Below, piece by piece: positions 23,856 through 57,847 of a stretch of DNA of 64,000 nt. The DNA is taken from assembly GCA_963743725.1 (NCBI GenBank), contig CAVURH010000008.1, positions 924-64,923 of the forward strand. Reading direction: 5' to 3'. The notes below the pieces were generated by a model, which saw nothing but the letters and a program-made list of their open reading frames with translations, was not told where the DNA came from and made no database searches. Every line of letters begins with the position of its first letter. Within the stretch, counting starts at the first letter, position 1. This DNA is from an uncultured Solirubrobacterales bacterium. GTDB lineage: Bacteria > Actinomycetota > Thermoleophilia > Solirubrobacterales > Solirubrobacteraceae. Made by a program: the position numbers and the translations under genes.

Positions 23856-26206
23856 CGCGGTGGCCGTCTCCTCATGGGCTCCCGGCCGGCGGGCTGGACC
23901 GGCGCCTCCCGTGCCGGGGCAGACGGGATACCCATCACGGCCGGCCGCCCGGCCTCGAGCCTGACCGGTTGACCGTGATGGGCGATCTCGAGCAGCTCGC
24001 CCTCGAGCAACGAGTAGTGCGCCTCGCTGCGGCGGACGTCGACGAGCAGTCGGTGGCTGCGGCACATCACCCTGAACACCACGCGCGTGAGCGAATCGGG
24101 AAGGCGCGGCGCGAAGTAGAGCGTGCCGCCCTCGTCGCGCATGCCGCCAAATCCCCAGATCAGGCCGATGCACGCTCCGGCGAGCGACGCGATGTGTAGA
24201 CCATCGCGGGTGTTGCGCTCCAGATCGTCGAGGTCCATCAGTGCCGCCTCGCCCAGGTAGTCGTAGGCCAGCGCAAGGTGGCCGACCTCGGCAGCAAGCA
24301 CCGCCTGGGTGGCGGCGGAGAGCGACGAGTCCCTGACGGTCAGCGCTTCGTAGTACGCGAAGTTGTCTGCTTTTTGCTCGTCGGTGAACGCGTCGGGACG
24401 CGCGAACATCGCCAGCACGAGGTCGGCCTGCTTGACGACCTGCTTGCGGTACAGGTCGAAGTACGGGAAGTGCAGAAGCAGCGGATACTGATCGGGCGAG
24501 GTGTGGGCGAAGTCCCAGCGGTCGTGGTCAAGGAAGCCTTCGGCCTGGGAATGGATCCCGCGCTCCGCGTCGTAGGGGATGACCATCGTCTGGGCGGCGT
24601 CGCGCCAGCTCGCCGCCTCCTCGTCGTCTACCTCGAGGCGGGCCGCTACACGTGGGTGGCGCTCGACCGCGGCCGCCGCCGCGCGCAGGTTCTGCTGGGC
24701 CATCAGGTTCGTGTACACGTTGTTGTCCGCCACCGCGCTGTACTCGTCCGGGCCGGTCACGCCGTCGATGCGAAAGCGCCCTGCGGTGTCGTGGTGGCCG
24801 AGCGAGCGCCACAGCCGTGCCGTCTCCACCAGGAGCTCGGCGCCAACCTCGTGCTCGAACGCCTCGTCGTTGTGCGCCGCCTGGTAGCGCACCACGGCGT
24901 CTGCTATGTCCGCGTTGACGTGGAAGGCGGCAGTGCCGGCCGGCCAGTAGCCGGAGCATTCCTGGCCGGCGATCGTGCGCCACGGGAAGGCCGCGCCGCG
25001 GAGACCGAGTTGGCGGGCGCGCTCACGGGCGAGATCAAGCGTCGCGTAGCGCCAGCGCAGCGCGTCGGCAGCCGCGCGCGGCGCGGTGTAGGTCAACACG
25101 GGCAGCACGAACGCTTCCGTATCCCAGAACGCGTGCCCGTCGTAGCCCGATCCCGTCAAGCCTTTGGCCGCGATCGCGCGCTGCTCGCCACGGGCGCTGG
25201 CCTGCAAGATGTGAAAGAGCGAGAAGCGGACCGCTTGTTGAAGCTCGGAGTCGCCGGCGACCTCGATGTCGGCCCGCTCCCAGAAGTAGTCGAGATACTC
25301 GCGCTGCTCGGACACCAGCCGGTCCCAACCCCTGTGCTCGGCTTCTGACAGCGCGCCGCCGACCTGGTCGCGCAGCGCCGAGATCGATCGTTCGGAGGAC
25401 CAGCCGTACGCGATGAACTTGACTAGCCGCAAGGGCTTACCGGGCGCGACGTCGGCGGTGATTGTCAGCCGCGCGACATCCTCGAAGGCCTCGATCGAGT
25501 CACCGGTACCGGGCGGCCCGTCGATCTCGTGCCCCATTGCTGCCGATACGCTGAGACCGCTCGAGGCGGTCCGGTGCGTCAGAATCGCACGCTTATCGCG
25601 ACAGTCGAAAGCCTCCGAGCGCAGGGGCGCCGCGAGCGCCGCGGCTGTGCGCGGGTCGGCCTCCATCTCCGGCATCGACTCGTTGCTGACAAGTTCGGAC
25701 TGGACCACGATCGGCGTTGGCTCGTCGAGCGGCTCGACCTCGAACGAGATCGCGGCGATCGCGCGGTGGGAGAGCGAGACGAGGCGCGTCGAGGTGACTC
25801 GCACCGCCTTGCCGGTGGGAGACACCCATTCCGTTTCTCGCCGCAGCACCCCGGCACGCATGTCCAGCATGCGCTCGTGGCGTCTGAGCTCGCCGTAGCG
25901 GACGTCGAACGGCTCGTCGTCGATGATCAGGCGGATGATCTTGCCGTTGGTCACATTGACCACGGTCTGGCCCGACTCCGGATTACCGTACCCGGCCTCA
26001 GCGTAGGGCAGCGGGTGCAGCTCGTAGAAACCGGCCAGGTAAGTGCCCGGTAGCCCGAACGGCTCGCCCTCGTCGAGGTTGGCGCGCAGCCCGATATGGC
26101 CGTTCGACAGCGCAAAGACCGATTCGGTCTGCGCGAGCCGGTCGAGGTCGAGCTCGGTCTCGCGCAGGACCCACGGCTCGACGCTGAAGGCAGACTGGGC
26201 GATCAC
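23852..26206 (-). CDS. Glycoside hydrolase family 65 disaccharide phosphorylase (kojibiose/trehalose/maltose phosphorylase-like)
   Basis: 784 aa. SNGHIGLRANLDEGEP, GSGYDGHAFWDTEAF, ADNNVYTN and YKQVVKQADLVLA-like blocks are present. It is coupled to the upstream beta-PGM. Confidence 0.9.
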   Translation of the reverse strand: MIAQSAFSVEPWVLRETELDLDRLAQTESVFALSNGHIGLRANLDEGEPFGLPGTYLAGFYELHPLPYAEAGYGNPESGQTVVNVTNGKIIRLIIDDEPFDVRYGELRRHERMLDMRAGVLRRETEWVSPTGKAVRVTSTRLVSLSHRAIAAISFEVEPLDEPTPIVVQSELVSNESMPEMEADPRTAAALAAPLRSEAFDCRDKRAILTHRTASSGLSVSAAMGHEIDGPPGTGDSIEAFEDVARLTITADVAPGKPLRLVKFIAYGWSSERSISALRDQVGGALSEAEHRGWDRLVSEQREYLDYFWERADIEVAGDSELQQAVRFSLFHILQASARGEQRAIAAKGLTGSGYDGHAFWDTEAFVLPVLTYTAPRAAADALRWRYATLDLARERARQLGLRGAAFPWRTIAGQECSGYWPAGTAAFHVNADIADAVVRYQAAHNDEAFEHEVGAELLVETARLWRSLGHHDTAGRFRIDGVTGPDEYSAVADNNVYTNLMAQQNLRAAAAAVERHPRVAARLEVDDEEAASWRDAAQTMVIPYDAERGIHSQAEGFLDHDRWDFAHTSPDQYPLLLHFPYFDLYRKQVVKQADLVLAMFARPDAFTDEQKADNFAYYEALTVRDSSLSAATQAVLAAEVGHLALAYDYLGEAALMDLDDLERNTRDGLHIASLAGACIGLIWGFGGMRDEGGTLYFAPRLPDSLTRVVFRVMCRSHRLLVDVRRSEAHYSLLEGELLEIAHHGQPVRLEAGRPAVMGIPSAPAREAPVQPAGREPMRRRPPR

Positions 26207-26919
26207 GGGGCGTCGAGCAGCTCGGCTAGGTCCTTCACGACGACGTTCGCACCGTGCGCCTTCAGCGCCTCGGCCTGCCCGACGCGGTCGACCCCGACGA
26301 CGAACGCGAACTGACCCCGGCGTCCCGCCTCGACGCCCGCCAGCGCGTCCTCGAACACCGCCGCTTGGTCTGGCCGGACACCGAGCGCCCGTGCCCCAGC
26401 GAGGAATGTGTCGGGCGCGGGCTTGCCCTCCAGATGCTCGCGCGCCGCGACATGACCGTCGACGATCTCCTCGAACAGATCGAGGATCCCGGCGGCGACC
26501 AGCACGTCCCGGCAGTTGGTGGACGAGGACACCACCGCGCGGCGAAGGCCGCCCGCCCGCGCGGCGTTCACGTAGCGCACCGATCCTGGGTAGGCCTCCA
26601 CGCCTTTCTCGCGGATCATCTTCAGCACGATCTCGTTCTTGCGGCTTCCCAGCTCGTCGATGACCTCGTCGGGCTCATCGATGCCGCGAGCTGCGAAGAA
26701 CGAGCGCACCCCCTCGGCACGCGGCTTGCCATCGACGTACTGGTCGTAGTCGGCGACCGCGTCGAAAGGCGCGAAACGCTCGCCGCGCTGCTCGGCCCGC
26801 CGGCGCAGATAGTCATCGAACATCTCCTTCCAAGCCGCGGCGTGGACCGTGGCCGTCTCGGTGAGCACGCCGTCGAGGTCGAACAGGCAAACGCTGACGC
26901 TGGCCGGCAAACCGAGCAC
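26203..26919 (-). CDS. pgmB: Beta-phosphoglucomutase (HAD superfamily)
   Basis: 238 aa. CLFDLDGVLTETA nucleophile motif, VVSSSTN, and VFEDALAGVEAGRRGQF. ATGA overlap with the GH65 start. Confidence 0.85.
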   Translation of the reverse strand: MLGLPASVSVCLFDLDGVLTETATVHAAAWKEMFDDYLRRRAEQRGERFAPFDAVADYDQYVDGKPRAEGVRSFFAARGIDEPDEVIDELGSRKNEIVLKMIREKGVEAYPGSVRYVNAARAGGLRRAVVSSSTNCRDVLVAAGILDLFEEIVDGHVAAREHLEGKPAPDTFLAGARALGVRPDQAAVFEDALAGVEAGRRGQFAFVVGVDRVGQAEALKAHGANVVVKDLAELLDAP

Positions 26920-32903: not shown

Positions 32904-32980
32904 GGCCGCGAGCCTAGCCCACCACGTTGCCAGGGATCACTGCTGATTGGCCGCCGGCTTTGCGGTGTTACCGTCGGGGG

Positions 32981-34573
32981 ATGGCCGAGGTCGATAGCCG
33001 CGGCACCGATCGGAATGCGACGCATCTGATGTCACTGGCCTCGACGGATCGCGAACCGAATCGATGGGCGGTGCTGGCCCTGCTCGGCGTTGCGCAGCTG
33101 ATGGTGGTGCTGGACGCGACGATCGTGACCATCGCGATTCCTTCGGCCCAGAATGCGCTGCATTTCTCTACCGAGAGCCGGCAGTGGATCGTCACCGCGT
33201 ACGCGCTGGCCTTCGGCAGCCTATTGCTGCTGGGTGGCAAGCTCGGTGATCTGTTCGGGCGCAAGTGGACGCTGATCGCCGGCCTGGTCGGGTTCTCGAT
33301 CGCCTCGGCGATCGGCGGTCTGGCCCAGTCCTTCGGCGTACTCGTGGCCGCTCGAACGCTCCAGGGGGCATTCGGCGCGCTGCTCGCACCCTCGGCGCTG
33401 GGGTTGCTGACGGTTACGTTCGAGGGATCTCCTGACCGGCCCAAGGCGTTCGGGATCTTCGGTGCGATCGCGGGCGGTGGCGCCTCGCTCGGGCTGATCC
33501 TTGGGGGCGCGCTCACCCAAGTCTTGTCCTGGCGCTGGTGCCTGTATGTCAACGTTGTGATCGCAGTGCCCACGACGATCGTGGCGTTGCGCCTGCTGGT
33601 CAATCACCGCGCACCCGACCGGGACCCGATCGACATCCCCGGGGTTCTCACCTCAGCGCTCGGCCTGTTCGCGCTGGTGTACGGGTTCTCCAACGCCGAG
33701 ACGCACTCCTGGAGTGCAACGGCCACGATCGTGGCGCTCGTCGCCTGCCCAGTGCTCCTGACGGCCTTTGTGCTGATCGAGCGCCGAGCCAAGCATCCGT
33801 TGCTGCCCCTGCACATCATCTGGGACCGGGCGCGCGGCGGCGCGTACACCACGATCGCGCTGGCCGGCGCGGGCACCCTTGCCGTATTTCTGTTTCTCTC
33901 CTACTTCCTGCAGCAGCAGCTCGGCCTTTCGCCGCTCACCACCGGACTCGCGTTCCTCCCGCTGACCGGCATTCTGGTGGTCACCTCGACCACCGTGCAG
34001 ACCCGCGTGATCCAACGCACCGGGGTCAAGCCGCTGGTACTTGCTGGCACGACGCTCGGGGCGATCGGGATGTTCCTGTTCACGCGCCTGACGCCCGGCT
34101 CCAGCTACGCCGGCAATGTCCTTCCCGGTCTGCTCGTCCTCGGCGTCGGGATGGGATGCATCTTCGCGCCGGCGTTCTCAACGGCGACCCTGGGTGTGGA
34201 GGGACGCGAGGCCGGGGTCGCCTCGGCGATGGTCAACACCTCCCAACAGGTCGGCGGGTCGGTCGGCACCTCCCTACTGAGCACGATCTTCGCCAGCGCA
34301 GTGGCCAGCTACACGTCCAGTCACCTTCGCACACCCGGCCTGGCTAACGCCGCGGCCGTCCACGGCTACACCACGGCGTTCTGGTGGGCGGTCGGAATCT
34401 TCGCTCTCGGCTTCGTTCTGGCGTTGGTGATCCTGCCGGGCCGGGCCAAGCCCCGCGTGCCCACCCTTCGGGCTGCGCTCGCCCGTCTCGCGATCGGCAA
34501 CTGCCAGTACTTCGAGGCGGCGAAGCGCGCCCGGCATGAGCCTGACGCTACGACGGGTGCTGGGCCGCGATGA
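32981..34573 (+). CDS. MFS transporter, DHA2 (EmrB/QacA, 14-TMS) family
   Basis: LLGVAQLMVVLDATIVTIAIPS and LLLGGKLGDLFGRKW motifs. The start could be 32981 or 33029. Confidence 0.85.
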   Translation: MAEVDSRGTDRNATHLMSLASTDREPNRWAVLALLGVAQLMVVLDATIVTIAIPSAQNALHFSTESRQWIVTAYALAFGSLLLLGGKLGDLFGRKWTLIAGLVGFSIASAIGGLAQSFGVLVAARTLQGAFGALLAPSALGLLTVTFEGSPDRPKAFGIFGAIAGGGASLGLILGGALTQVLSWRWCLYVNVVIAVPTTIVALRLLVNHRAPDRDPIDIPGVLTSALGLFALVYGFSNAETHSWSATATIVALVACPVLLTAFVLIERRAKHPLLPLHIIWDRARGGAYTTIALAGAGTLAVFLFLSYFLQQQLGLSPLTTGLAFLPLTGILVVTSTTVQTRVIQRTGVKPLVLAGTTLGAIGMFLFTRLTPGSSYAGNVLPGLLVLGVGMGCIFAPAFSTATLGVEGREAGVASAMVNTSQQVGGSVGTSLLSTIFASAVASYTSSHLRTPGLANAAAVHGYTTAFWWAVGIFALGFVLALVILPGRAKPRVPTLRAALARLAIGNCQYFEAAKRARHEPDATTGAGPR

Positions 34574-41894: not shown

Positions 41895-44250
41895 TTATTC
41901 GCGGGCGATCATGGCGGCGGCCTCGCGCTCGAGGTCGACGTAGGGCTCGCCGCTGACGTCGACGGCGCCAAAGTGGATTGTGCCGCCGGTGAACGGCCAG
42001 GGCCGCTGGCCGGGGTAGTCGTAGGTGATCGCGTGGAGGCTACGCCCGACGGTCAGCCCGGATCCGGTCAGGCCGAAGGTCGCGGGCTGGGTCTTGATTT
42101 GCCCCTCGCCGACCTTGTCCTCGCCGTAGTAGAGCGACAGAGTCCCCGTGCAGACACCCGGCTTGCCCTCGCTGTCCTTGACGAACTCGGCCGACAGGAG
42201 CAGGTTATCGCCGACCGGCACGTCCTCGGTCGCGTCGATTTTCTGCTCGAGCATGCCGACGAAGTTGTAGACGTAGTGCAGCCGGTTGTCCTTGACGTAG
42301 AGCGTGTGCCCGCCGAAGTGCGAGCCGTGCGCGAACAGCACCCCCTGTGCCCCCGGCGCCGGGATGTCGACCCACATTCCGATGATGTAGTCGCGGTTGC
42401 GGACATTGACGGCTAGTGCCTCCGGGACCTCGGCTACGCCGGGGAAGTAGCGGTAGCGGTCGCGCGGGCTGGTGATCTGGGGACGCGGGGTGGTGATGAT
42501 CTCGACCGGCGAGCGGTCATCGAGCGGGAATGCCCCGTTGGCGCCTGCTTCGGAGAACCACAGGTTGATCAGCTCGCGCAGCTTCTCGGGGTGCTCTGCC
42601 GCGAGGTCGTGGAGCTCGGCGCGGTCGGTCTCGACGTTGTAGAGCTCCCATGTGTCTTCGTTGAAGTGGCTCCAGCCGGCGACCGTGGGGTGGGTGGTTA
42701 CGGCTTTCCATCCCTCGTGCCAGATCGCCCGCGAGCCGAGCATCGAGTAGAACTGCGTCGATCGCGCGTTTGGGATCGAGGCGTCGTTGAAGCTGTACCG
42801 CATGCTGATCCCGTCGAAGCTGCTCTGCACGTGCCCCTTGATCGTCTCCGGCGGCTCGACCCCGAGGCAGTCGAGGACGGTCGGCACGATGTCGATCGCG
42901 TGGTGGTACTGGTGGCGGATCTCGCCCTTGGCCTCGATCTCCTTCGGCCAGGAGATGATGCACGGATCGCAGCTGCCGCCGTTGTACTCGTAGCGCTTCC
43001 ACATCTTGAACGGCGTGTTGAACGCCATCGCCCAGCCGTTGGGGTAGTGGTTGTAGGTCTTCTCGCTCCCGAGCTCGTCGATCATCGCCAGGTTCGTCTC
43101 GATGTCATCGGGAATCTGGTTGATGAACTTGTTCTCGTTCAGCGATCCGTTCGGCCCACCCTCGCCGCTGGCCCCATTGTCCGAGACCACCACGATGATC
43201 GTGTTCTCGAGCTGCTCGGTCTCCTCCAGATACGCGAGCAGGCGACCGATCTGCCAGTCAGCGTGGGCGAGGAACCCCGCGTAGACCTCGGCCATGCGAC
43301 AGAACAGCCTGCGCTCGTCGTCGGACAGCGAACCCCACGGGCGCGTGAAGTCAAGCTGTGGGAACGGCTCGTCCGCCCGGGCCCTTGCGATCCTGTGGGG
43401 TCCCGATCGGGTTGAGCGCCGGGAGCTCCGTGTCCTCGGGGACGATCCCGAGCTTCTTCTGGCGCTCGAGCGTCTGCTCGCGCATCGCCTCATAGCCGAT
43501 GTCGAACCGGCCCTTGTACTTCTCGATCCACTCTCTGGGTACCTGGTGGGGGGCGTGGCACGCGCCCGGCGTGTAGTAGAGGAAGAACGGCTTGTCCGGG
43601 GCCACCGCCTTCGCGTCCATGATGAACTCGAGCGCCCTGTCAGTCAGATCCACCGTCAAGTGGTAGCCGTCCTCGGGCTGGGAGGGCTGGTCGACCGGAT
43701 GGTTGTCATAGACCAGGTCCGGATGCCACTGGTCGGTCTCCGCGCCGAGGAAACCGTAGAAGCGCTCGAACCCTCGCCCTGTCGGCCAGTTGCGCCGGGT
43801 CGAGGCGAGATGCATCTCGTCGGTCGGGCACAGATGCCACTTCCCGGTCATGTACGTGTTCCAGCCGAGCTCGCCGAGGATCTCCGGGAGCATCCCGTTC
43901 TCCGGCGGGATCGTGCCGCTCGCGTTCGGGAACCCGATCGCGGCCTCGGTGATGCACGCCATGCTGTTGCGCGTGTGATTACGACCCGTCAGCAGGCACG
44001 AACGTGTCGGCGAACACAGCGCCGTGGTGTGCCACTGCGTATATCGGACCCCGCTGGCGGCGATCCGGTCGATGTTCGGCGTCTCCACCGGGCCGCCGTA
44101 ACAGCCGACCGCCGCGAAACCAACGTCATCGAGCACGATATACACCACATTCGGCGCTCCGTCCGGAGCCCTCGGCGGCTCGAACGGCGCCCAATCAGGA
44201 ACCGAGTCGCGAATATCGACGTTGACGACTCCCTTGAATGGCTTGCCCAT
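41895..44250 (-). pseudogene. Arylsulfatase (formylglycine-dependent, AtsA-like), +1 frameshift near 43374
   Basis: The N-terminal part has NVVYIVLDDVGF and CSPTRSCLLTGRN (CxPxR), ending ..IGTPQDRKGPG. It continues as DEPFPQLDFTRPWGSLSDDERRLFCRMAEVYAGFLAHAD.. in ORF 41895..43493. Length is 2356 nt, which is 3n+1. Confidence 0.85.
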
Positions 44251-44356
44251 GAACGGCCTCGATTCGTCTGCGCGTCTACCCGAGAGATGTGACCCCTTCA
44301 CACTCCCGGGTCACCGGTGGCCGAGCATCATCCAGATCGGGTGATCTCTCCAAGCA

Positions 44357-48292: not shown

Positions 48293-48424
48293 GGATCTCC
48301 TCGGATCGGCAGTTCTCGCCGTTGCCGGCGACCGCACCTGCGCGCACCGGGGATCGTAATGCCCCGCGACGCCGGCGACCGGGTCACGCCGCCTCAGACG
48401 TAATTCTCACGCTCTTCTCCCGGC

Positions 48425-48477
48425 CTCCTTACGGCCCTCGAGCAATGTGGCTGCTCCCCTCAAGCAACCGTAAGGAG
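48425..48477 (+). promoter_or_regulatory. Shine-Dalgarno-sequestering hairpin in the 5' leader of the PepSY gene
   Basis: ctccttacgg (48425-34) is the perfect reverse complement of ccgtaaggag (48468-77). The latter contains the AAGGAG that lies 4 nt before the ATG at 48482. Confidence 0.4.
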
Positions 48478-48481
48478 AGTC

Positions 48482-48914
48482 ATGAGGAACATGAGATCGA
48501 TGCTGATAACGGGCGCGGCGGTCGGAGCGGCCGCGGTCGGCGGCGCGGCGATCGCCAGCGCCGCAAGCTCCACAACGACGACGTCGAGCTCCAGGATGCC
48601 GTCCGCACCGCAAGGTGCGCCGGCGTTCCCCGCCCACGGGACGGCCGCGCACGAGGACGCGGAGAAGGCGGTCACCGGCGCGGCGGCTGCCAAGGCCCGC
48701 GCGGCGGCGGTCAAGCTCGCCGGTGGCGGCACCGCCGGTGCGGTCACGACCGACTACACCGGCAACGGGTACGAGGTGACCGTCACCAAGTCCGGCGGCG
48801 GCACGGTCGAGGTTCACCTCGACAGCTCGTTCAACGCCCTGAAGCGCCCAGGCGGTCCGGGCGGTCCGGGCGGTCCCGGCGGCCCCGGGCGGTCCCGGCG
48901 GGTACGCCGGCTGA
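48482..48914 (+). pseudogene. Secreted PepSY-domain protein with (GGP)n tail, +1 frameshift near 48887
   Basis: Signal peptide. AEKAVTGAAAAKARAAAVKLAGGGTAGAVTTDYTGNGYEVTVTKSGGGTVEVHLD. The fifth 9-nt repeat unit carries an extra G. The corrected frame ends GPGGYAG* at 48912-14 instead of running into the next gene. Confidence 0.55.
48851..48896. repeat. Tandem 9-nt coding repeat (ggcggtccg) x5
   Basis: ggcggtccg ggcggtccg ggcggtccc ggcggcccc g-ggcggtccc. This encodes GGPGGPGGP. Confidence 0.8.
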
Positions 48915-48981
48915 GAGCGCTGGTGGCGTGGGCGGCGGGGCGGCCGCCCACGCCTCACCCCCTGGTTAGGATCCGGCCAGG

Positions 48982-49566
48982 ATGGGCGTCCGTCTCGCCG
49001 AGCTCGATGATCACGCGGAGCTGACTCACGTTCTCGCCCGGGCGTTCGACGATGACCCGATCCAGCGGTGGGTCTTCCCCAGCCCACGGGTGCGCGCCCG
49101 GTACGGCGATCAGTTCTTTCGCTGGTCGCTCTGGCGGTGCGCGGACCAGCACGTGAGCTGGACGACCGACGACCTGGCCGGCGCCGCGCTGTGGATGCTG
49201 CCCGACCGCTGGCAGGTGACGATCCCGCAGCTCGCGCGGCTGGCCAGATGGGCCGGCCTCGGCGTCCGGTGGCGGGCGCCCCTGGTCGCGTGGGGACTGA
49301 CCGCGGTCGAGCGTCATCATCCGGGCGACCGGCATCTGTATCTCGCGGTGCTCGGCGTCGATCCGGCTCGGCAGGGGGCCGGCCTCGGTTCGGCACTGCT
49401 GGCGCCCGGACTCGAGCTGTGCGATCGCGACGGAATCGCGGCCTACCTCGAGACGGGGAAGGAGCGCAACCTCGCCTTCTACTCACGGCACGGATTCCAG
49501 GTCACGCACGACCTCCGCCTCCCGGCCGGACCGCCCGTGTGGCTGATGCGCCGCGAGCCGCGCTGA
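48982..49566 (+). CDS. GNAT-family N-acetyltransferase
   Basis: 194 aa. LAVLGVDPARQGAGLGSALL..AYLETGKERNLAFYSRHGF. Confidence 0.85.
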   Translation: MGVRLAELDDHAELTHVLARAFDDDPIQRWVFPSPRVRARYGDQFFRWSLWRCADQHVSWTTDDLAGAALWMLPDRWQVTIPQLARLARWAGLGVRWRAPLVAWGLTAVERHHPGDRHLYLAVLGVDPARQGAGLGSALLAPGLELCDRDGIAAYLETGKERNLAFYSRHGFQVTHDLRLPAGPPVWLMRREPR

Positions 49567-49592: not shown

Positions 49593-50606
49593 CTAGCCCT
49601 CTTCCCTCAGACTCCCGATCCGCAGCGACCCGTCGGAGCCCGGGTCCGCCTCCTCGCCCGCCGAGTCGGCGGCACCGGGATCGGGCGGGTCGTCGAGGAA
49701 GCCGGCGCTCGGGACGAAGAACAGACTGCCGGTGACGGCGGTGGAGAAGTCGAGGATCCGGTCGTGGTTTCCGGGCGGCTTGCCGATGAACATGTTCCGC
49801 AGCATCTCCTCGATCACGTCCGGAGTGCGCGCATAGCCGATGAAGTACGTCCCGAACTCGCCCCTGCCGATGTTTCCGAACGGCATGTTGAGGCGGAGGA
49901 TCTGTCGCTCCTCGCCGTTCTCGTCCTCGATCACGTTCAGCGCGACGTGCGAGTTGGTGGGCTTGGCATCGTCAGCGAGCTCGATGTCGCTCAGCTTCGT
50001 GCGGCCGATCGCCAGCTCCTGTTCCTCCACCGTCAACGCGTCCCAGGCCTCGAGGTCGTGCAGGTACTTCTGCACGATCACGTAGCTGCCGCCGGCGAAG
50101 GCCGGGTCCTCGTCTCCGATCACGACGGCGTCGGCCGCCTCTGCGCCCTCCGGATTCTCGGTCCCGTCGACGAATCCGAGCAGGTCGCGCTCGTCGAAGG
50201 ACCGGAACCCGTGCACCTCATCCACCACGCGCGCGAACGCGCCAAGCCGGTCCATCAGCCGCTGGGCGAGCTCAAAGCAGAGATCGAGGCGGTGGGCGCG
50301 GATGTGGAAGAGCAGGTCGCCCGCCGTCGCCACCGCCCTGTGTCGGTCGCCCGCCAGCTCGATGAACGGGTGCAGCTCGGCCGGGCGCGGCGTCCCGAAC
50401 GTGCGGTCCCACAGCTCGGGCCCTATCCCGACAATGCAGCTCAGCTCGCCCTCGGGGATGCGAAAGCCGACCGACCGCCGCAGCGCGCTGGCATCGGCGA
50501 GCACGTCGCGGACGGCGTCCTCGGCTCCGGCGTCGACCGTGAGCACGAGAAAGATCGCCGACTCCGTGAGTGGGCTGAGCACGGATTGCGGGTCTGATCC
50601 TTCCAC
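49593..50606 (-). CDS. DyP-type peroxidase with C-terminal encapsulin cargo-loading peptide
   Basis: 337 aa. GFVDGTENP (GxxDG) and proximal-His region PTNSHVAL. C-terminus ..PGSDGSLRIGSLREEG. GTG start with GGAAGGTGGA upstream. Confidence 0.9.
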   Translation of the reverse strand: MEGSDPQSVLSPLTESAIFLVLTVDAGAEDAVRDVLADASALRRSVGFRIPEGELSCIVGIGPELWDRTFGTPRPAELHPFIELAGDRHRAVATAGDLLFHIRAHRLDLCFELAQRLMDRLGAFARVVDEVHGFRSFDERDLLGFVDGTENPEGAEAADAVVIGDEDPAFAGGSYVIVQKYLHDLEAWDALTVEEQELAIGRTKLSDIELADDAKPTNSHVALNVIEDENGEERQILRLNMPFGNIGRGEFGTYFIGYARTPDVIEEMLRNMFIGKPPGNHDRILDFSTAVTGSLFFVPSAGFLDDPPDPGAADSAGEEADPGSDGSLRIGSLREEG

Positions 50607-50666
50607 GGCGTTCCACCTTCCACTCGCGGTCGGTGAAGCCTACTCAGGCCCCCGCCGCCGGCGGTC

Positions 50667-51716
50667 TCAGAACACGAGCAGCATCAGGCCAACCGTCACC
50701 CCGGGACCGACCGTGACCATCAGCCCGCGTTCGCCTCGCGGCGGCCGCCGCCGCGAGATCGTCTCGCTGAGCACGTAGAAGATCGACGGCGTCCCCACGT
50801 TCCCGCGTGTCGCGAGCACGTCGTAGCTCACCTGGACCTCCTCGGGCGTCAGCTCGAGCGCGACCCGGACCCGATCGAGGATCCGGGGGCCGCCGGGGTG
50901 GATGATCCAGTGGTCGATCTCCCCGCGCAGAAGCCCGACCGACTCGAGAAACTCGTCGACCAGCTCGGGAAGCCCGCACGCCGCGACCTCGGGCAGATCC
51001 CGGTCCAGATGCAGGTAGCTGTCCTCGTCGCTCAGCTCCATCCGGACGGCTCCGAGAGTGCCCTCGATCTGGTGCACCTTCGACGCCGCGACGGCGGGCC
51101 CGCTCGTCCCGCGCTCGATCACGGCGGCCGCGCAGCCGTCGCCGAAGATCGCCGAGCCGACCGTCTTGGCGCGGTGGTCGCCGGGGGCGGCTCGCATCAG
51201 CAGCCCGCTCATGCTCTCGGCGGCGACGATCAGCCCCTTGCGGCCGGGATGAGCGTCGAGCGAGCCGGTCACTAGCCGCACGAGCGGCACCGCGCTTGCG
51301 CACCCGACCCCGACCACGTGGTACTTGTCGGTCGACGGATCCATTCCGAACACCTCCACGAGCCGGTGCGCGAGGGTCGGCCCCCCGAGGGAGTAGAGGC
51401 TCGAGGTCACGACCGTGCCGATCTCGGCCGGCGCCACATCGAGGCGCCGGACCGCGCCGACCGCGGCTTCGAACAGCTGCTCCTCGGTCCACGCCGTCCG
51501 GCCCTGGAGGGTCTGCGCGACCGTGCCCGGGCAGAGCCCCAGGCTGCGGCTGTCGACCGCGGCGCGGCCGAAGACCCCCTCGGCGAAGGAGTCTCCCTCG
51601 AGCCCGAGCGCTGAGAGCACCTCGCGTTGGGACATCATCGCCGTGGGCTCGACGACGGCGAGCCCACTGATCCTCGGCAGGTCGCTCAAGCTGCCTGCTG
51701 CCGGCCGGCCTGCCAT
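50667..51716 (-). CDS. Type III polyketide synthase (chalcone/stilbene synthase superfamily)
   Basis: 349 aa from the ATG at 51716. Catalytic Cys in VVGVGCASAV, His in WIIHPGGPRIL, Asn in TRGNVGTPSIFYVL. Confidence 0.9.
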   Translation of the reverse strand: MAGRPAAGSLSDLPRISGLAVVEPTAMMSQREVLSALGLEGDSFAEGVFGRAAVDSRSLGLCPGTVAQTLQGRTAWTEEQLFEAAVGAVRRLDVAPAEIGTVVTSSLYSLGGPTLAHRLVEVFGMDPSTDKYHVVGVGCASAVPLVRLVTGSLDAHPGRKGLIVAAESMSGLLMRAAPGDHRAKTVGSAIFGDGCAAAVIERGTSGPAVAASKVHQIEGTLGAVRMELSDEDSYLHLDRDLPEVAACGLPELVDEFLESVGLLRGEIDHWIIHPGGPRILDRVRVALELTPEEVQVSYDVLATRGNVGTPSIFYVLSETISRRRPPRGERGLMVTVGPGVTVGLMLLVF

Positions 51717-52387
51717 GAGCCGAGCGTCGTGATCGCGCCGCCGATTACGCGGTCGAGGAACGTGGCTCGATCGTTGGCGTGGGGGAGCGGCTCGGACGGG
51801 ACCGGCACACCGAGAAACTCGCACAGCGGCTCCCAGCCCTCCGACACCTCCCACACGAGCAGCCGCTCCGCCGGGACGACTTGCTTGACCTCCTCGTTGT
51901 GGGCCACGAACGCCTCCATCAGCGCCTCCGGCGAATGCCCGGCCGGGAACGTGCCCTGGTCGCTCCAGAACATCCGGTCGACGAATTCGAGGTAGCGCCG
52001 CCAGGAGGGATCGACATGGGCCCGAGCACTCGACAGCAGGCGGATCAGCGACTCGCCGTGGCACATGTCGACGATCGTCTCGCGGAAGCTCGGCTCCCAG
52101 CGCTCCGGATCGCGCACGCTCAGCAGCACCTTCGCATTCGGGAACGCGTCCACCAGGTCGCGGTAGAAGAACCCGCCCGGCCAGTCGACCGTGGAGCGCC
52201 AGCCCTCGAGGATCGAGCCCGGCTCGACACGTCCCTCCAGGGCCCCCTCCCACAGCGGGACCTGTGAGTCAAGGCCGGCCAGGACGTCGACCCAGTGGTA
52301 GCACGGCGCGAGCCCGAGCATCTCGAACGCCACCTTCTGCGTCAGCGTGCCGGTTCGCGGCAGCCCGGCTCCGATCAGCTCGACCAC
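51686..52387 (-). CDS. PAPS-dependent sulfotransferase (Sulfotransfer_4-like)
   Basis: 233 aa from the GTG at 52387. GAGLPRTGTLT (5'-phosphosulfate loop) and KVLLSVRDPERWEPSF. Its 3' end overlaps the T3PKS start by 31 nt. Confidence 0.75.
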   Translation of the reverse strand: MVELIGAGLPRTGTLTQKVAFEMLGLAPCYHWVDVLAGLDSQVPLWEGALEGRVEPGSILEGWRSTVDWPGGFFYRDLVDAFPNAKVLLSVRDPERWEPSFRETIVDMCHGESLIRLLSSARAHVDPSWRRYLEFVDRMFWSDQGTFPAGHSPEALMEAFVAHNEEVKQVVPAERLLVWEVSEGWEPLCEFLGVPVPSEPLPHANDRATFLDRVIGGAITTLGSWQAGRQQAA

Positions 52388-53190
52388 TATGCAGCCGCTC
52401 CGGTGGCCAGCGTCGACATCGGGCGCAGGCTCGCGGTCCCGTCGAGCATCAGCCGGCCGATCTGCTCCAGCTGTCCGCCGATTCGCAGCGAAGGTCCGAC
52501 GACGCCGATCGCGGCGCGTGGCCGGCCGGCGTCGAATATGACCGGCACCGCCACGCCGGAGACGCCGTCGAGGTACTCCTCCTCGGCGACGGCAAAGCCG
52601 TCTCGTCGCGCCGCCGCCAGGTCGCTGGCCATCTGCGCCCGATCGTGAGTCTTCTGGGTCAGCGCCGGGAGCGGCAGCCGCCCGAGCATGCTCTCGGCCT
52701 CGGCCGGCGAGAGTCCGATGAGCAGCGCCTTGCCCAGGGCGCCGGGCGGGATCGTCAGGCGCTGGCCGGCCATCGGGATCACGGACAGGGTCTGGGGGCT
52801 GATCCGCGTGCTCACGATCGTCAGCTCGAGCGTCTCCCAGTCGACCGCCGCGAGCATTACCGATTCCCCCGTGGTCGCCGCCAGCTCGTCGAGGATCGTG
52901 GAGCATGCGGTAACGACGTCGAGGTCGGCGCGGGCCAGGGCGCCGAGCTCGCTCAGCTTCAAGCCGAGCGAGTAGCGGCCGTCCTCTCCGTGCCGCATGA
53001 ACCCGAGCGCGACCAGCGAGCCGGCGAGCCGGTGCACGGTGGCCTTCGGCAGGCCGACCCGGTCCGCGAGATCACCCAGACCGAGCCGCGGCTCGGCGGC
53101 CGTGAAGGCCGAGAGCACGGCGCACGTACGCTCGACCGTCCGCGTCGTGTGCGCGCCGCCTGTCTCGACAGATGAAACGCGTTTCACCAA
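52387..53190 (-). CDS. IclR-family transcriptional regulator
   Basis: 267 aa. wHTH LGLGDLADRVGLPKATVHRLAGSLVALGF. C-terminal effector domain. The stop TAG shares one base with the next GTG (TAGTG). Confidence 0.9.
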   Translation of the reverse strand: MVKRVSSVETGGAHTTRTVERTCAVLSAFTAAEPRLGLGDLADRVGLPKATVHRLAGSLVALGFMRHGEDGRYSLGLKLSELGALARADLDVVTACSTILDELAATTGESVMLAAVDWETLELTIVSTRISPQTLSVIPMAGQRLTIPPGALGKALLIGLSPAEAESMLGRLPLPALTQKTHDRAQMASDLAAARRDGFAVAEEEYLDGVSGVAVPVIFDAGRPRAAIGVVGPSLRIGGQLEQIGRLMLDGTASLRPMSTLATGAAA

Positions 53191-53272
53191 TTGAAATATA
53201 CGCGCTGCGGCGGCGGTGGGCCGTAGTAGCCTTCCGCGCGCCGGGAGTCGGCATCATTGGACCGGAGGGCGC

Positions 53273-53890
53273 ATGTTCGGAACTCATCAGCTGCTCGAGC
53301 ACAGGCTCCGCAAGAGCGGAAAGTCGGCGCTCGCGAACGTGACCGCGTGCGAACGCAAGGAGACGATGCAGCAGAACGTCAACGCGGGCGTCGGCACGCC
53401 CAAGACCCTGTGCTACCTGGAGCTGCAGGTACAGCCGGAGGGCGAGCCGGGCTTCGAGGCCAAGACGGACGCTTGGCTGGTGGGCACGGAGGGCGCGCAT
53501 GTCGGAATGACCGTCCCGGTGCTCTACGACCCGTCAGATCACGGCAAGGTCGTGGTCGACAGCTCGGACGAGGCCTGGCGGCCGGCCGACAACGAGAACA
53601 CCTTCGCGAGGATCGCCGCCAGGGCGGCCGAGCGGGGCGAGGACCCGTCGCGGACGGCGGCGATGATGGAGATGAGGCGCGCGGCCCTCAGCGACCCGGA
53701 GGGATTCCGCAAGACGATGCGCGACCAGGGGCCCGCGGCGTTCGGCCTGCCCGGGCCACCGCAGACGTCCGCTCCGCCCCCGTCGCAGGATCCGCTCGAT
53801 CGGCTCTCGAAGCTGGCCGACCTTCACGAGCGCGGCGCCCTGACCGACGCCGAGTTCGAGGCGGAGAAGAAGAAGCTGCTCGGCAGCTAG
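53273..53890 (+). CDS. SHOCT-domain protein
   Basis: 205 aa from MFGTHQ. C-terminal DRLSKLADLHERGALTDAEFEAEKKKLL. Confidence 0.7.
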   Translation: MFGTHQLLEHRLRKSGKSALANVTACERKETMQQNVNAGVGTPKTLCYLELQVQPEGEPGFEAKTDAWLVGTEGAHVGMTVPVLYDPSDHGKVVVDSSDEAWRPADNENTFARIAARAAERGEDPSRTAAMMEMRRAALSDPEGFRKTMRDQGPAAFGLPGPPQTSAPPPSQDPLDRLSKLADLHERGALTDAEFEAEKKKLLGS

Positions 53891-54627
53891 CTGCCGTCGA
53901 GCGACGCGAGCGTTATCTCGAGCACCCGGTCCCAGTAGCGGCTGCCGTGCTCGGCGCTGGCGGCTGTTGGGTCGCCGATCACGCCGTTGTCGGCCAGCGA
54001 GTGGACCCCGCCGGTGAAGAGCCCGCCGACCGCCGTCTCGAGATCGCCCGTATAGCCTGGCTCGCCTCGCTCGAGGTGGACGAGCTCGGGATGGATCGCC
54101 GCGAGCATCGACGTCTCCCACTCCCCCGCGTGCAGGCCGCCCTGCTCCAACGGCACGTCGTACTGATCGGCGCCGAGCTGCGCAATCGCGAGCAGCGCCC
54201 CGAGGTCGATGAGCGCGCTGACCTCGATTCCCGGCGCATCGTCCAGCGCCTCGATCGCCTCCGCGAGCGGCCGGAAGTTCCCGCCGTGCGTCGGCAGCAG
54301 CACCACCCGGCGAAAGCCGCCGCGGGCGAGTGAGCGCACGACATCGGCGACGATCGCGTGGAAGGTCGGCTCAGACACCGACAGCGTCCCCGGGAACTCG
54401 AGGTGGTGCTCGGAGCAGCCGATCCTCACCGTCGGCGCCACGAACGCATCCAGCCGCTCGGCCACGAGCCGCGCCAGATGGTCTCCGATCAGCGCGTCCG
54501 TTGCGAGCGGCATGTGAGGTCCGTGCTGCTCAGTCGCGCCGAACGCGATCACGACCGTGTCCCGCCCGGCCTGTAGCTCCGCCCTCACCTCGGGCCAGGA
54601 CAGGCGGTCGAGCTCGAGCGCTCCCAT
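53887..54627 (-). CDS. Creatininase-family amidohydrolase
   Basis: 246 aa. VVIAFGATEQHGPHMPLATD, LLPTHGGN, HAGEWETS. Confidence 0.85.
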   Translation of the reverse strand: MGALELDRLSWPEVRAELQAGRDTVVIAFGATEQHGPHMPLATDALIGDHLARLVAERLDAFVAPTVRIGCSEHHLEFPGTLSVSEPTFHAIVADVVRSLARGGFRRVVLLPTHGGNFRPLAEAIEALDDAPGIEVSALIDLGALLAIAQLGADQYDVPLEQGGLHAGEWETSMLAAIHPELVHLERGEPGYTGDLETAVGGLFTGGVHSLADNGVIGDPTAASAEHGSRYWDRVLEITLASLDGS

Positions 54628-54636
54628 CCCGTCCGT

Positions 54637-55083
54637 TCAGCTCGCCTCAACCGCGGCCTTGATCCGCTCCGCGAGCGCGGGCGCGTCCTTGACCGCGGCC
54701 TTGGACGCGAATCCCACGATCAGCTTCCCGAACCCGTGGCCCTCGAACTGGTTGTGGATCGTCACCTTGGTCTGACCGTTGCCGACGTCCTCCAGGTCGT
54801 AGCCGCCGTCCGGGACCGTGACCGCGTTCTTCGAGCGCTCGGCCCAGCGGATCTTCGTCGGCGCCACGAGCTCCGTCAGCTCGAACTTCCGGCTGCTCTT
54901 CATACCGGCGTCCTTGACCGTGCTCTCGAACACTGTGCCGACTCCCACCGGCCCGTCGGTCGTCTTTCTGATCTCCTGGACGCGCGGGCTGAACTTGGGG
55001 TCGTTGGTCCCGTCAGCCAGGAACGCGAACACCTCGTTGATTGGGCGGTCGACCACCGCCGACCCCGTGAAACCATGTGCCAT
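54637..55083 (-). CDS. SRPBCC family protein
   Basis: 148 aa. VVDRPINEVFAFLADGTNDPKFSPRV. Confidence 0.8.
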   Translation of the reverse strand: MAHGFTGSAVVDRPINEVFAFLADGTNDPKFSPRVQEIRKTTDGPVGVGTVFESTVKDAGMKSSRKFELTELVAPTKIRWAERSKNAVTVPDGGYDLEDVGNGQTKVTIHNQFEGHGFGKLIVGFASKAAVKDAPALAERIKAAVEAS

Positions 55084-55285
55084 CCGGCCGTACTCCTTCC
55101 TCGACGACGTACCCCGGAGACCCTATACCGGGTGCCAAGCGGCCGACTCATATTTTCCGGCCTCGGTGCCGATAAACAAGCACCGAATCGTTGGCGGTCG
55201 CCCAGGCTGGAAGGGCCGCTGCGGCGGGTGAGCGTCGGCGCCTCACCGTCCGCCATCCGATCGGATCGGCCGTATCGTTGCCGGC

Positions 55286-56044
55286 ATGCTCGATCCCGAG
55301 AACGGGGCGCGGCGAACCGCTCGCGCGGTCAGGCGGATGGTGTCCTCGCCGCGGCGCGTGTGGGAGCGCGCGCTGCCCGGCGAGCTCGAGTTCTGGCGCC
55401 GCTACATCGAGACCCGGGGTCTCGACTTCCCGGACGAGTTCGACGCCCAGCTCGACCCGCAGGCGCCGATCCGGGACGAATTCCTGCTCGCCGCCGTCGA
55501 CCTCGTCGGCGGCCCGCTGGTCCGGATCCTCGACGTCGGCGCCGGCCCGCTCAGCGCAGTCGGACAGCGGGACCCCAGAGACCCGGATCGGCGCGTCGAG
55601 CTCGTCGCCGTTGACCCGCTCGGCGACGAGTACGCAAAGCTGCTGCTTGAGGCCGGTATCTCGCCGCCGGTCCTCACGCGCGCGTGTAGCGGCGAGGACC
55701 TGGTCGACGCTCTCGGTCGCGGCAGCTTCGACATCGCCTACGCCCGCAACTCGGTCGACCACGGGGTCGACGCGCCCGCGATCGTCGAGAACATGCTCGA
55801 CTGCGTTCGCGTCGGCGGCGCGGTCGTGCTCCACCACTACCGCCGCGAGGCGGAGAACATGCGCTACGAGGAGCTACATCAGTGGAACTTCGACGTACGC
55901 GACGAACGGCTGGTGCTGTTCGACCGCCGTCACAGCCACGACCTGACCGAGCGCTTCGCCGGCCGCGCCGAGACCACCGCGGTGATCCACGCGGGCGCGC
56001 ACCACGCGTCCTGGGTGGCCGCGACGATCGTGCGGCGGCGATGA
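55286..56044 (+). CDS. Class I SAM-dependent methyltransferase
   Basis: 252 aa. Motif I RILDVGAGP. FDIAYARNSVDH. VRVGGAVVL. Confidence 0.7.
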   Translation: MLDPENGARRTARAVRRMVSSPRRVWERALPGELEFWRRYIETRGLDFPDEFDAQLDPQAPIRDEFLLAAVDLVGGPLVRILDVGAGPLSAVGQRDPRDPDRRVELVAVDPLGDEYAKLLLEAGISPPVLTRACSGEDLVDALGRGSFDIAYARNSVDHGVDAPAIVENMLDCVRVGGAVVLHHYRREAENMRYEELHQWNFDVRDERLVLFDRRHSHDLTERFAGRAETTAVIHAGAHHASWVAATIVRRR

Positions 56045-56061
56045 GCCGCGCTCGCCGGCCG

Positions 56062-56624
56062 TCAGCACTTGTTGTTGTAACAGGCGAGCTGTATGTAGCG
56101 AAGCCGAGTCGCGGACGGTCCGACGCCGAACGAGGAGAAATGGGTGACGTTCAGCCCGCCGGGGCCGGTGCTGAACAGGTCGAAGCCGTTTACCCCGGTG
56201 GAGGTGTTCGCCTTGGCCGCCGGATAGGCGCGCTTGACCGCGGCCTTCTGCGACCCGAGATGGATGTTCTTGGCCGTCTTCCACTTCGACAGCGTGCCCG
56301 GCTTAAATTTCTCGCTCGTGCCGTTGTCGTTGCCGCGCTGATGGAGACCTCGATCACACCGCCCCCGGCGAAGCTGACCACCGCGCGTTCGGCATGGCCG
56401 GCCGAGCCGGGCCCGGTCCAGGTGCAGAAGCCCGCCATGCAGCCGGTCCTGCCCCAGAGGTGAAACACCTGCGCCTGCGTCATCCCGAGCTTGATCCCGG
56501 CGATCGACTTCCCCGGCACGATCAGCGTCCTCTTCGGGTGCGGGAGCCTGGCCGAACCGACCGCCGGCCATAGCGTCGCTCCGACCGCCATGACGCCGAC
56601 GGCAACCGCCGCTCTGCGAAGCAT
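56062..56624 (-). pseudogene. Secreted hypothetical protein, frameshift near 56338-56345
   Basis: GAGGAGG lies before the ATG at 56624. Signal peptide MLRRAAVAVGVMAVGATLWPAVGSA. ..GGGVIEVSIS continues as RGNDNGTSEKFKPGTLSKWKT..YIQLACYNNKC* in the ORF 56062..56571 frame. Length is 563 nt, which is 3n+2. Confidence 0.55.
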
Positions 56625-56728
56625 TGAGACCTCCTCTTCCCGGTTCCGGCGCCTCGGCCCCGCCAAAGCGCCGCTGCCGGTCAATCGTATGCCAGCGGCG
56701 GCCTCCTTACCAGCGATGATCTGCGGGA

Positions 56729-57847
56729 ATGCTGTGGCGCCCCACCGAGCACGAGCCGCTCACCAAGACGGCTTGGGACGAGTCGTTGGCCCGCGGCGCG
56801 ATCGATCGGATCGTGGCCGACGCCGAGGGCGCGGTGCGAGACGGCTTCTGGCCCGGGCACCCGCTCGACGAGCTCGAGCCCGACGAGCGCTTCTGCTCCC
56901 TGTATCTGGGGAGCGCGGGCATGGTGTGGGCGCTTCACCGGCTGGGATCCTCGCTCGATTGCGGCGCGGTGTTGAGCCTCGCGCTCGAGCATTACCGGAC
57001 CGCGCCCGATCTGGGGAGTGAGGCCCACCCTCCGAGCCTGTGGATGGGCGAGACGGGTGTGCTCGTGGTTGCGGCCGTCGTCGGTTCGCCCGACGCCGAC
57101 CGCGAGCGGCTCCGGGCGCTGATCCGCGAGAACCGCGCGCATCCGACATGGGAGCTGATGTGGGGCTCGCCCGGGACGATGCTCGCCGCGCGCGCCTGCG
57201 GGCTGGCGGACGAGTACGAGGAGAGCGCGCGTCTGCTGCTCGACGCCTGGGATGACGCCACCGGGCTGTGGACACAGCACCTGTACGGGAAGGTCAAGCG
57301 CTACCTGGGCCCGGCACACGGGTTCGCCGGCAATGCGCACGCGCTGCGCGGACAGCTGGACGAGGACGCGCTCCGCGCGCGGGTGACCGCGCCGCTCGAG
57401 CGCACCGCGGGTCGCGAGGACGGGTTGGTCAACTGGCCGCCCGAGGACCGGCCGCTGGATCAGCTCGCGGCCGAGGTCCGCGTGCAGTGGTGCCACGGCG
57501 CGCCGGGGATGATCGCCACGCTCGGCGACCTGATGCCGCGCGAGCTCGCGCTCGGCGGCGGCGAGCTGACGTGGCGGGCGGGACCGCTCCGCAAGGGTCC
57601 GGGGCTCTGCCACGGAACGGCCGGCAACGGCTTCGCCCTGCTCCGGCTGCACGAGCTCACGGGCGAAGCGAGGTGGCTCGAGCGCGCGCGACGGTTCGCG
57701 ATGCACGCAATGGAGCAGGTCGAGCGCGACCGGGCCCGCGTGGGCCACGGGCGCTACACGCTGTGGACCGGCGATGCCGGCGTCGCGCTGTACCTCGACG
57801 CCTGCCTGGAGGCCAACGCATGGCTACCGACCATCGACGGCTTCTGA
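56729..57847 (+). CDS. Standalone LanC-like (lanthionine synthetase C-like) protein
   Basis: 372 aa. LYLGSAGMVWAL, GPAHGFAGN, WCHGAPGM and GLCHGTAGNG, so the Zn-ligand Cys/Cys/His set is intact. Confidence 0.85.
   Translation: MLWRPTEHEPLTKTAWDESLARGAIDRIVADAEGAVRDGFWPGHPLDELEPDERFCSLYLGSAGMVWALHRLGSSLDCGAVLSLALEHYRTAPDLGSEAHPPSLWMGETGVLVVAAVVGSPDADRERLRALIRENRAHPTWELMWGSPGTMLAARACGLADEYEESARLLLDAWDDATGLWTQHLYGKVKRYLGPAHGFAGNAHALRGQLDEDALRARVTAPLERTAGREDGLVNWPPEDRPLDQLAAEVRVQWCHGAPGMIATLGDLMPRELALGGGELTWRAGPLRKGPGLCHGTAGNGFALLRLHELTGEARWLERARRFAMHAMEQVERDRARVGHGRYTLWTGDAGVALYLDACLEANAWLPTIDGF

Follow-up and report, generated by a model that had tools for sequence, protein, structure and literature searches.

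According to the accounts that PMC6731281 and PMC4924298 give of Tang et al. 2013 (Nat Chem Biol), caprazamycin is sulfated in two steps that involve the type III polyketide synthase (PKS) Cpz6, the sulfotransferase Cpz8, which uses PAPS (3′-phosphoadenosine 5′-phosphosulfate), as well as the arylsulfate sulfotransferase (ASST) Cpz4, and the Lip (A-90289) and Lpm (liposidomycin) systems are homologous. A type III PKS and a sulfotransferase also occur together in the adp 'sulfation cassette' of Streptomyces davaonensis, where AdpPKS, AdpST and a PAPS cassette lead to sulfated adipostatins; AdpST is distant from most characterised sulfotransferases and stands closest to those of lanthipeptides (PMC12135136). 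For most bacterial PAPS-independent ASSTs, the natural donors or substrates and the physiological roles are poorly understood (2026 review, PMC13426309). Here we describe a minus-strand locus encoding an IclR-family regulator, a sulfotransferase, a type III PKS and a dye-decolourising peroxidase (DyP), which lies in a stretch of 64,000 nucleotides, hereafter the window, from an uncultured Solirubrobacterales bacterium (assembly GCA_963743725.1, contig CAVURH010000008.1, positions 924 to 64,923).

We consider that the first three of these genes would best be explained as a translationally coupled operon of IclR, Cpz8-like sulfotransferase and type III PKS, at about 50667-53200 on the minus strand. 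Its conserved core is the sulfotransferase together with the PKS, and the IclR gene was added in the subclade to which the window belongs. That this pair makes a sulfated polyketide appears very probable to us, and the fuller statement, in which the product acts as a sulfuryl donor and the three genes are under IclR control, somewhat probable. To our knowledge, no genuine ASST donor system is known besides Cpz6/Cpz8/Cpz4, which is found in one family of antibiotic clusters. The features of the locus, in coordinates of the window, are:

53195..53200, minus strand: −10-like hexamer TATATT, 7 nt upstream of the IclR GTG
53173..53186, no strand assigned: candidate IclR operator, palindrome TGAAACGCGTTTCA, its position kept in 8 loci
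52387..53187, minus strand: IclR-family regulator (Pfam HTH_IclR and IclR_C)
51686..52387, minus strand: Sulfotransfer_4 (Cpz8-like), putatively PAPS-dependent sulfotransferase, 233 aa (PF17784; best PDB match 9KF1)
50667..51689, minus strand: type III PKS, 340 aa from TTG (Pfam; triad aligned with Pks11)
50623..50642, minus strand: DyP upstream motif TAGGCTT...GCGAG, candidate promoter and 5′ untranslated region, kept before DyP genes elsewhere
49593..50606, minus strand: DyP-type peroxidase of the encapsulin-cargo subgroup (Pfam; best PDB match 7BOK)

An earlier note, made from the letters of this DNA alone, had read four co-directional minus-strand genes here, and a Pfam profile search of the open reading frames (ORFs) confirmed all four families, in a region of about 70% G+C. 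The gene junctions that it described could also be recovered from the sequence, with one amendment. The IclR and sulfotransferase genes meet at TAGTG, the TAG stop (52389-52387) having G 52387 in common with the GTG start of the sulfotransferase, whose own TGA stop (51688-51686) already lies within the PKS ORF, at its 5′ end. The DyP gene does begin 60 nt past the PKS, from the TGA at 50669-50667 to the GTG at 50606, and the spacer holds a ribosome-binding site (Shine-Dalgarno), GAAGGTGGA. The amendment concerns the 31-nt overlap claimed between the sulfotransferase and the PKS: the in-frame ATG at 51716 that would produce it is present, but the PKS likely starts at TTG 51689, which gives a protein of 340 aa instead of 349 and an overlap of 4 nt (TTGA). 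We prefer the TTG because the position of the start is conserved (of nine scorable subclade loci, eight have a TTG or GTG four codons ahead of the PRIS motif, and in the ninth, L008, the distance is six codons; the tenth, L084, gave no result), because the upstream ATG/GTG is absent in the relatives L006 and L009, and because a 100% identical database entry has 340 aa, as do most homologs. The sulfotransferase and PKS genes overlap with either start. For both the PKS and the DyP, NCBI/ENA has identical proteins, on a contig of 116,969 nt. A consensus scan (sigma-70) for promoters and terminators over 48.9-53.4 kb gave no match, the PKS-DyP spacer included, and neither did Rfam and tRNA scans of the whole window.

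The sulfotransferase and its PKS partner

The protein encoded at 51686-52387 matches Sulfotransfer_4 (PF17784) with an E value of 2.3e-57, over profile positions 2-215 of 215, so that its reading as a sulfotransferase, which the earlier note had left to a profile search, stands; NCBIfam offers no specific name for it. Among solved structures its best match is 9KF1/9KF2 (E 1.6e-42), deposited as 'sulfotransferase family protein'. Since the codon-optimised 'Streptomyces Cpz8' gene given in the supplement of PMC6731281 translates to the sequence of 9KF1, the best solved match of the window enzyme is Cpz8. The two share 43% identity (BLASTP, E 2e-49); Cpz8 in turn shares 85% identity with LipE and 84% with LpmF. 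The PAPS loop GLPRTGT and the RDPERWxxS motif, both already noticed by eye, align with the same motifs of Cpz8 (GAGLPRTGT with GAGFGRTGT, and SVRDPERWEPS with TVRDSERWYDS) and correspond to the 5′-phosphosulfate loop GxxRTGT and the 3′-phosphate motif RDxxxWxxS of PAPS-binding enzymes. By these motifs and matches, the window sulfotransferase is Cpz8-like and predicted to depend on PAPS.

The second-best solved match, SgdX2 (8Y9P, E 5e-41), is described as an 'activating sulfotransferase' of sungeidine biosynthesis in a reference cited in PMC11677658. By analogy, sulfate could be installed here as a leaving group that drives dehydration or cyclisation, and the final product would carry none. 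We regard this as very improbable: Cpz8 scores better than SgdX2, the phenolic hydroxyls of pyrone or resorcinol products are, as a matter of general chemistry, poor substrates for elimination, and a leaving-group role does not explain the clade-wide association with ASSTs described below, for which an aryl sulfate donor is needed.

The PKS (ORF 50667-51716) matches the Pfam domains Chal_sti_synt_C, FAE1_CUT1_RppA and ACP_syn_III_C, with scores of 67 bits for PF02797 (cut-off 27), 49 bits for PF08392 and 34 bits for PF00195; in NCBIfam it matches DpgA only, below threshold. Its Cys/His/Asn triad (GVGCASA, HPGG, GNVG), called intact from the outset, is indeed invariant across 16 aligned homologs and aligns with GLGC, HPGG and GNLS of Mycobacterium tuberculosis Pks11; the Cys that is changed to Ser in a deposited mutant chain falls in the same column. 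The closest solved PKS structures are those of Pks11 (E 3e-29) and pks18 (E 7.5e-27), matched over residues ~73-338 only, and this likeness, about equally distant for both, is judged from the alignments to be generic for type III PKSs. The precedent that the earlier note had seen in pks18 (Rv1372), whose neighbour in M. tuberculosis is presumably the sulfotransferase gene Rv1373, is weakened to that extent.

The caprazamycin precedent, in turn, holds on one side only. The window sulfotransferase belongs to the Cpz8 family and, like Cpz8, is paired with a type III PKS, but the window PKS shares just 29% identity, over 241 aa, with the Cpz6-family PKS of an Actinosynnema locus (L086). We take this enzyme and the partial PKS of the liposidomycin lpm cluster (L087) to define the Cpz6 family, their likeness being judged by eye. 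A neighbour-joining tree, drawn without support values, places the PKS of the window on a long branch separate from that family. The window PKS has 1829 database homologs, the top matches with a named organism being Solirubrobacterales, and all 80 genome loci that carry an ortholog come from metagenome-assembled genomes of this order, except one that is labelled only Actinomycetota. By sequence, then, the window PKS is not a Cpz6 ortholog and belongs to a separate, Solirubrobacterales-wide clade. Its host also differs, Solirubrobacterales being of the class Thermoleophilia and the caprazamycin producer a Streptomyces.

These 80 loci, each representing one GTDB species and holding an ortholog of the PKS with flanks of 10 kb, were used for comparison, and homologs of the window proteins were located in them by tblastn. 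A Sulfotransfer_4 gene adjoins the PKS ortholog in 60 of them. It is co-directional and directly upstream of the PKS in 17 loci and divergent, some 300 nt upstream, in 51, both arrangements being present in 8. In 54 loci, between one and four Cpz4-like ASST genes lie no more than 10 kb from the PKS ortholog (searched with the ASSTs of L086 and L085 as queries, and confirmed by Pfam), and a sulfotransferase or an ASST is found near the PKS in 79 of the 80, the exception being a contig of 7.8 kb. In one case the two enzymes form a clean natural fusion: P0118 (562 aa; L091:10001-11689, also L092 and L093) joins a Sulfotransfer_4 domain to a type III PKS; 10 contigs carry it in identical form, and the three loci named come from three different samples. 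Just upstream of it lie another Sulfotransfer_4 gene, which is divergent, and a small SKI-type P-loop kinase gene. The proposal that sulfotransferase and PKS are a conserved functional pair is thus borne out, both by their adjacency and by the existence of a fusion. Another apparent fusion of the two, P0055, from a relative at 98%, was discarded as a frameshift artefact with out-of-frame Arg/Pro-rich stretches.

The islands around these PKS genes recall the caprazamycin set. L008, the earliest branch of the subclade of the window (in the same kind of tree, again without support values), carries IclR, sulfotransferase and PKS and, besides three ASSTs, a CysQ-like Inositol_P gene with 59% identity to its counterpart in L086, where the module consists of type III PKS, ASST, Inositol_P and Sulfotransfer_4; L087 likewise holds an Inositol_P gene beside its partial PKS and LpmF. 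In the relatives the pair sits with Cpz4-type ASSTs; L008, like L086 and L087, has a CysQ-like phosphatase as well. The relatives differ from the caprazamycin system in that they possess 2-4 ASST paralogs, some of them fused to transporters of the major facilitator superfamily (MFS). Such fusions, single ORFs of about 1000 aa in which a multi-spanning MFS_1 transporter is joined to an ASST domain, occur in about 38 loci (for instance L010:12997-16227, plus strand, and L008:4942-7896, minus strand), where they adjoin the PKS ortholog and one to three further ASST paralogs. The literature that we searched contained no description of this architecture. One stand-alone ASST, in L010, begins with a hydrophobic, signal-like segment. 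Judged by their gene content, the relatives show the logic of the Cpz6/Cpz8/Cpz4 relay with a non-orthologous PKS and an expanded set of ASSTs, and the MFS-ASST fusions suggest that the donor is exported and that sulfation takes place outside the cytoplasm.

The IclR gene and its putative operator

The regulator scores 52 bits for HTH_IclR in its N-terminal part and 76 bits for IclR_C in its C-terminal part, while NCBIfam matches of the PcaR/PcaU/PobR type remain below the cut-off. Its start is likely GTG 53187 and possibly TTG 53190. An IclR gene lies directly upstream of the sulfotransferase gene in 6 of the 80 species loci, all in the subclade of the window, and also in L083, L084 and L088. 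The built-in regulator distinguishes the operon from the caprazamycin genes.

A perfect palindrome of 14 bp, TGAAACGCGTTTCA, extends from the second base of the IclR start codon to codon 5. Its position is kept in 8 subclade loci. In L008 it reads TGAGAC-CC-GTCTCA, both half-sites being altered symmetrically while the peptide changes from VKRVS to VRPVS; a symmetric change that is made despite its effect on the peptide favours a constraint at the level of DNA, such as an operator on a leaderless, autoregulated transcript. In addition, TATATT, of the TAnnnT class, stands 7 nt before the IclR GTG, and a TAnnnT box is found 7-9 nt before the start codon in the 8 aligned subclade loci. The position of this hexamer suggests a leaderless IclR transcript; the consensus scan found nothing here. 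The palindrome is a candidate operator through which IclR would probably control its own operon, and the earlier view that IclR forms part of the unit is upheld within this subclade, where the gene adjoins that of the sulfotransferase and the palindrome is conserved at its start.

Sulfuryl donor or sulfated end product

Based on these comparisons, the following mechanism can be proposed. Starting from an acyl-CoA and extending it with malonyl-type units, the PKS would build a small phenolic polyketide, a 4-hydroxy-2-pyrone or else a resorcinol, and the sulfotransferase would O-sulfate this product using PAPS. The resulting aryl sulfate would serve as sulfuryl donor to PAPS-independent ASSTs encoded elsewhere in the genome. 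IclR would bind TGAAACGCGTTTCA at its own leaderless start and in this way govern the three genes, perhaps responding to the phenolic product. We propose the donor role because of the analogy with Cpz6/Cpz8/Cpz4 and because the relatives embed the same PKS among ASST genes. On this analogy, the product class and the donor role are most likely as given here also in this organism, and the window most likely represents the sulfate-relay logic of Cpz6/Cpz8/Cpz4 set on a non-orthologous PKS and reduced to an IclR-controlled module that makes the donor.

Several observations weigh against this proposal. No ASST (PF05935/PF14269) could be detected by tblastn in the 64 kb of the window, nor was a CysQ-like gene detectable there, and no ASST lies within 10 kb of the PKS in L003-L007, L009, L024, L083 and L084. 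The donor role in this lineage therefore depends on what relatives carry. Given the low identity of the PKS to Cpz6-family enzymes, its product cannot be read off by homology. In the natural fusion P0118 the sulfotransferase is a paralog, its domain being 38% identical to the window enzyme and hence assigned to a second, co-directional class of paralogs that is seen in L017, L042, L052 and others. As to the regulator, the palindrome lies within coding sequence, and its occurrence as the sole match in the window (with up to 2 mismatches allowed) is statistically not unusual, since 30 of 100 shuffled sequences gave at least one match; the count by itself is weak. The locus is also unlike that of caprazamycin in that it contains neither an ASST nor genes for a nucleoside antibiotic.

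The lack of an ASST beside the module, in the window as in most members of the IclR subclade, fits with an alternative in which a sulfated alkylresorcinol or alkylpyrone is itself the functional product, perhaps as an amphiphilic lipid of the envelope, as a signal or as an antibiotic, comparable to the sulfated adipostatins, and sulfate is not passed on. Many of the PKS orthologs carry the JGI annotation alkylresorcinol/alkylpyrone synthase, and 11 loci of another subclade (L033, L045, L070, L072, L073, L077-L080, L082 and others) have the sulfotransferase but no ASST. The adp cluster demonstrates that a PKS and a sulfotransferase can yield sulfated end products (PMC12135136), and the window resembles it in having a type III PKS and a putative PAPS-dependent sulfotransferase in one operon, which in adp yields sulfated phenolic lipids. 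Unlike adp, however, the window operon is not adjoined by dedicated PAPS genes: it ends at the PKS, and no APS kinase or sulfate adenylyltransferase gene (cysC/cysD/cysN) was present among the ~30 neighbouring ORFs scanned by Pfam. The tie between this PKS clade and ASST genes, which extends to loci with no sulfotransferase nearby and to the basal L008, also speaks for a donor, as does the fact that the sulfotransferase is closest to Cpz8, the enzyme that charges the donor. We therefore consider an end product unlikely, yet it is the alternative that deserves to be taken most seriously.

If the aryl sulfate is indeed a donor, a wider picture can be sketched, which we offer tentatively and hold to be somewhat less than an even chance. 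The order-wide PKS clade of the Solirubrobacterales would make natural aryl-sulfate donors that are charged from PAPS by Cpz8-like sulfotransferases and feed exported batteries of ASSTs (2-4 paralogs per island), as a general extracytoplasmic sulfation that is unrelated to the tailoring of antibiotics. The window would then hold the IclR-gated, cytoplasmic half that makes the donor, separated from the ASST island and recently brought next to an orphan DyP of the encapsulin type. Our literature search found no paper that links Solirubrobacterales, type III PKSs and ASSTs. The near-universal presence of Cpz8-like sulfotransferases and/or ASSTs beside this PKS clade, across the species of an abundant soil order, suggests that a PKS-made sulfate carrier is a general strategy, and the islands offer cloneable sets of donor genes and ASSTs, transporter-ASST fusions among them. 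What the window itself contributes is more modest, a compact and probably regulated donor module.

The DyP gene and other neighbours

The earlier note had included the DyP gene in the unit, raising the possibility that an encapsulin-targeted DyP oxidises the (sulfated) polyketide and that a P450 and an arylsulfatase complete a cycle of making, oxidising and desulfating it. The four genes are co-directional, and read-through from the PKS into DyP may occur, since no terminator is predicted in the 60-nt spacer. The order is also kept in two near-identical metagenomic relatives: L083 (98% PKS identity) has IclR, sulfotransferase, PKS, DyP, GNAT and P450, and L088 (95% DyP identity) repeats this order, an additional gene for 681 aa following DyP. 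However, in L084, at 93% PKS identity, IclR, sulfotransferase and PKS are followed by a convergent gene for a PLP (pyridoxal phosphate) decarboxylase and DyP is missing, and DyP adjoins the PKS in none of the 80 species loci (tblastn). Its presence in L083 and L088 and its absence from L084 limit this adjacency to one species-level lineage. When the window was compared with its 8 closest loci by tblastx, which gave high-G+C noise without a filter and a clean result with a floor of 70 bits, similarity began near the IclR start and stopped just past the PKS stop codon, before DyP. Of the synteny expected for three enzymes, the sulfotransferase-PKS part is therefore conserved and the DyP part is not.

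The DyP protein is well defined (Dyp_perox_N E 6e-34 and Dyp_perox_C E 7e-62 in Pfam; best PDB match 7BOK, the DyP of M. smegmatis, E 1.5e-136). Its C-terminus, SDGSLRIGSLREEG (49596-49637, minus strand), contains SDGSLRIGSLR, which aligns with the C-terminal DGSLGIGSLK of 7BOK, so that by alignment it keeps the canonical peptide for loading into encapsulin. In this it is like the DyP of family 1 DyP-encapsulin operons, as in 7BOK, a close homolog; unlike in these operons, no shell gene adjoins it, and the convergent GNAT gene (48982-49566) follows instead, making DyP the last minus-strand gene. A tblastn search of the window with M. tuberculosis Cfp29 gave no significant match to encapsulin (Linocin_M18), the best E value being 0.09. 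The DyP of the window is in this sense an 'orphan' cargo gene, which may be served by a distant shell gene. A 75% identical DyP does lie with its normal partner, in a canonical DyP-Linocin_M18 operon (L090, 6001-7811), and an 80% identical one stands alone (L089). Upstream of DyP, the window, L083 and L088 share TAGnCTT and GCGAG without variation, and the same motif (TAGGCTT...GCGAG) is found in L089 and L090, at the same distance from the start codon. Because it precedes DyP genes also in such unrelated contexts, the DyP gene is most simply explained as having come in together with a promoter and 5′ untranslated region of its own, for which this motif is a candidate. From the comparison of gene orders, its link with the PKS appears to be a recent accident, DyP lies outside the conserved unit, and nothing supports a functional coupling of the two.

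The other members of the supposed cycle fare no better. The P450 shows no synteny with the 8 closest relatives. The arylsulfatase, taken for one gene at 41895..44250, proved to be a sulfatase of the formylglycine type (CSPTR motif; 41895-44301, minus strand) that is divided between two overlapping ORFs which differ in frame, 43351-44301 matching Sulfatase profile positions 1-202 and 41895-43493 positions 200-301 (Pfam). The break, near 43340-43410, was located against the intact homolog of L004, which is collinear in one frame; the gene is either a pseudogene or carries an assembly indel. L083 and L084 also hold frameshifted genes, which suggests error-prone long-read assemblies. In favour of a desulfating step, L004 has a sulfatase of the window type about 6.7 kb downstream of its PKS, and a PF00884 sulfatase recurs in 17 loci of the ASST type (for instance L025:18102-19931, minus strand, ~609 aa), where it closes the ASST island some 8 kb downstream of the PKS, although its subfamily differs from that of the window enzyme. 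Taken with the DyP results, the comparative data largely refute the four-gene unit, to which we assign very little probability; DyP, GNAT, P450 and the frameshifted sulfatase are best regarded as neighbours that show no demonstrable functional linkage to the operon.

An ORF of 359 aa at 48407-49486 (minus strand), Arg/Pro-rich and antisense to GNAT, is probably a spurious product of the high G+C content. The MFS transporter gene at 32927-34573 was considered as a counterpart of the MFS-ASST fusions and set aside as a generic paralog, being 35-39% identical to them but 17 kb away. Upstream of the operon, 53216-57847 encodes a SHOCT-domain protein, a creatininase-family protein, an SRPBCC/Polyketide_cyc2 protein (54637-55083), a weak methyltransferase-like ORF and a LanC-like protein (56729-57847); the SHOCT, creatininase and SRPBCC genes are common to the window and L088 and were not seen in other relatives. 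Further away and unrelated to the operon, a GH65 glycoside phosphorylase gene is followed by one for a HAD-family hydrolase (23852-26919, minus strand), an order typical of maltose or trehalose phosphorylase with beta-phosphoglucomutase, and an MFS sugar transporter, likewise unrelated, is encoded at 17558-19078.

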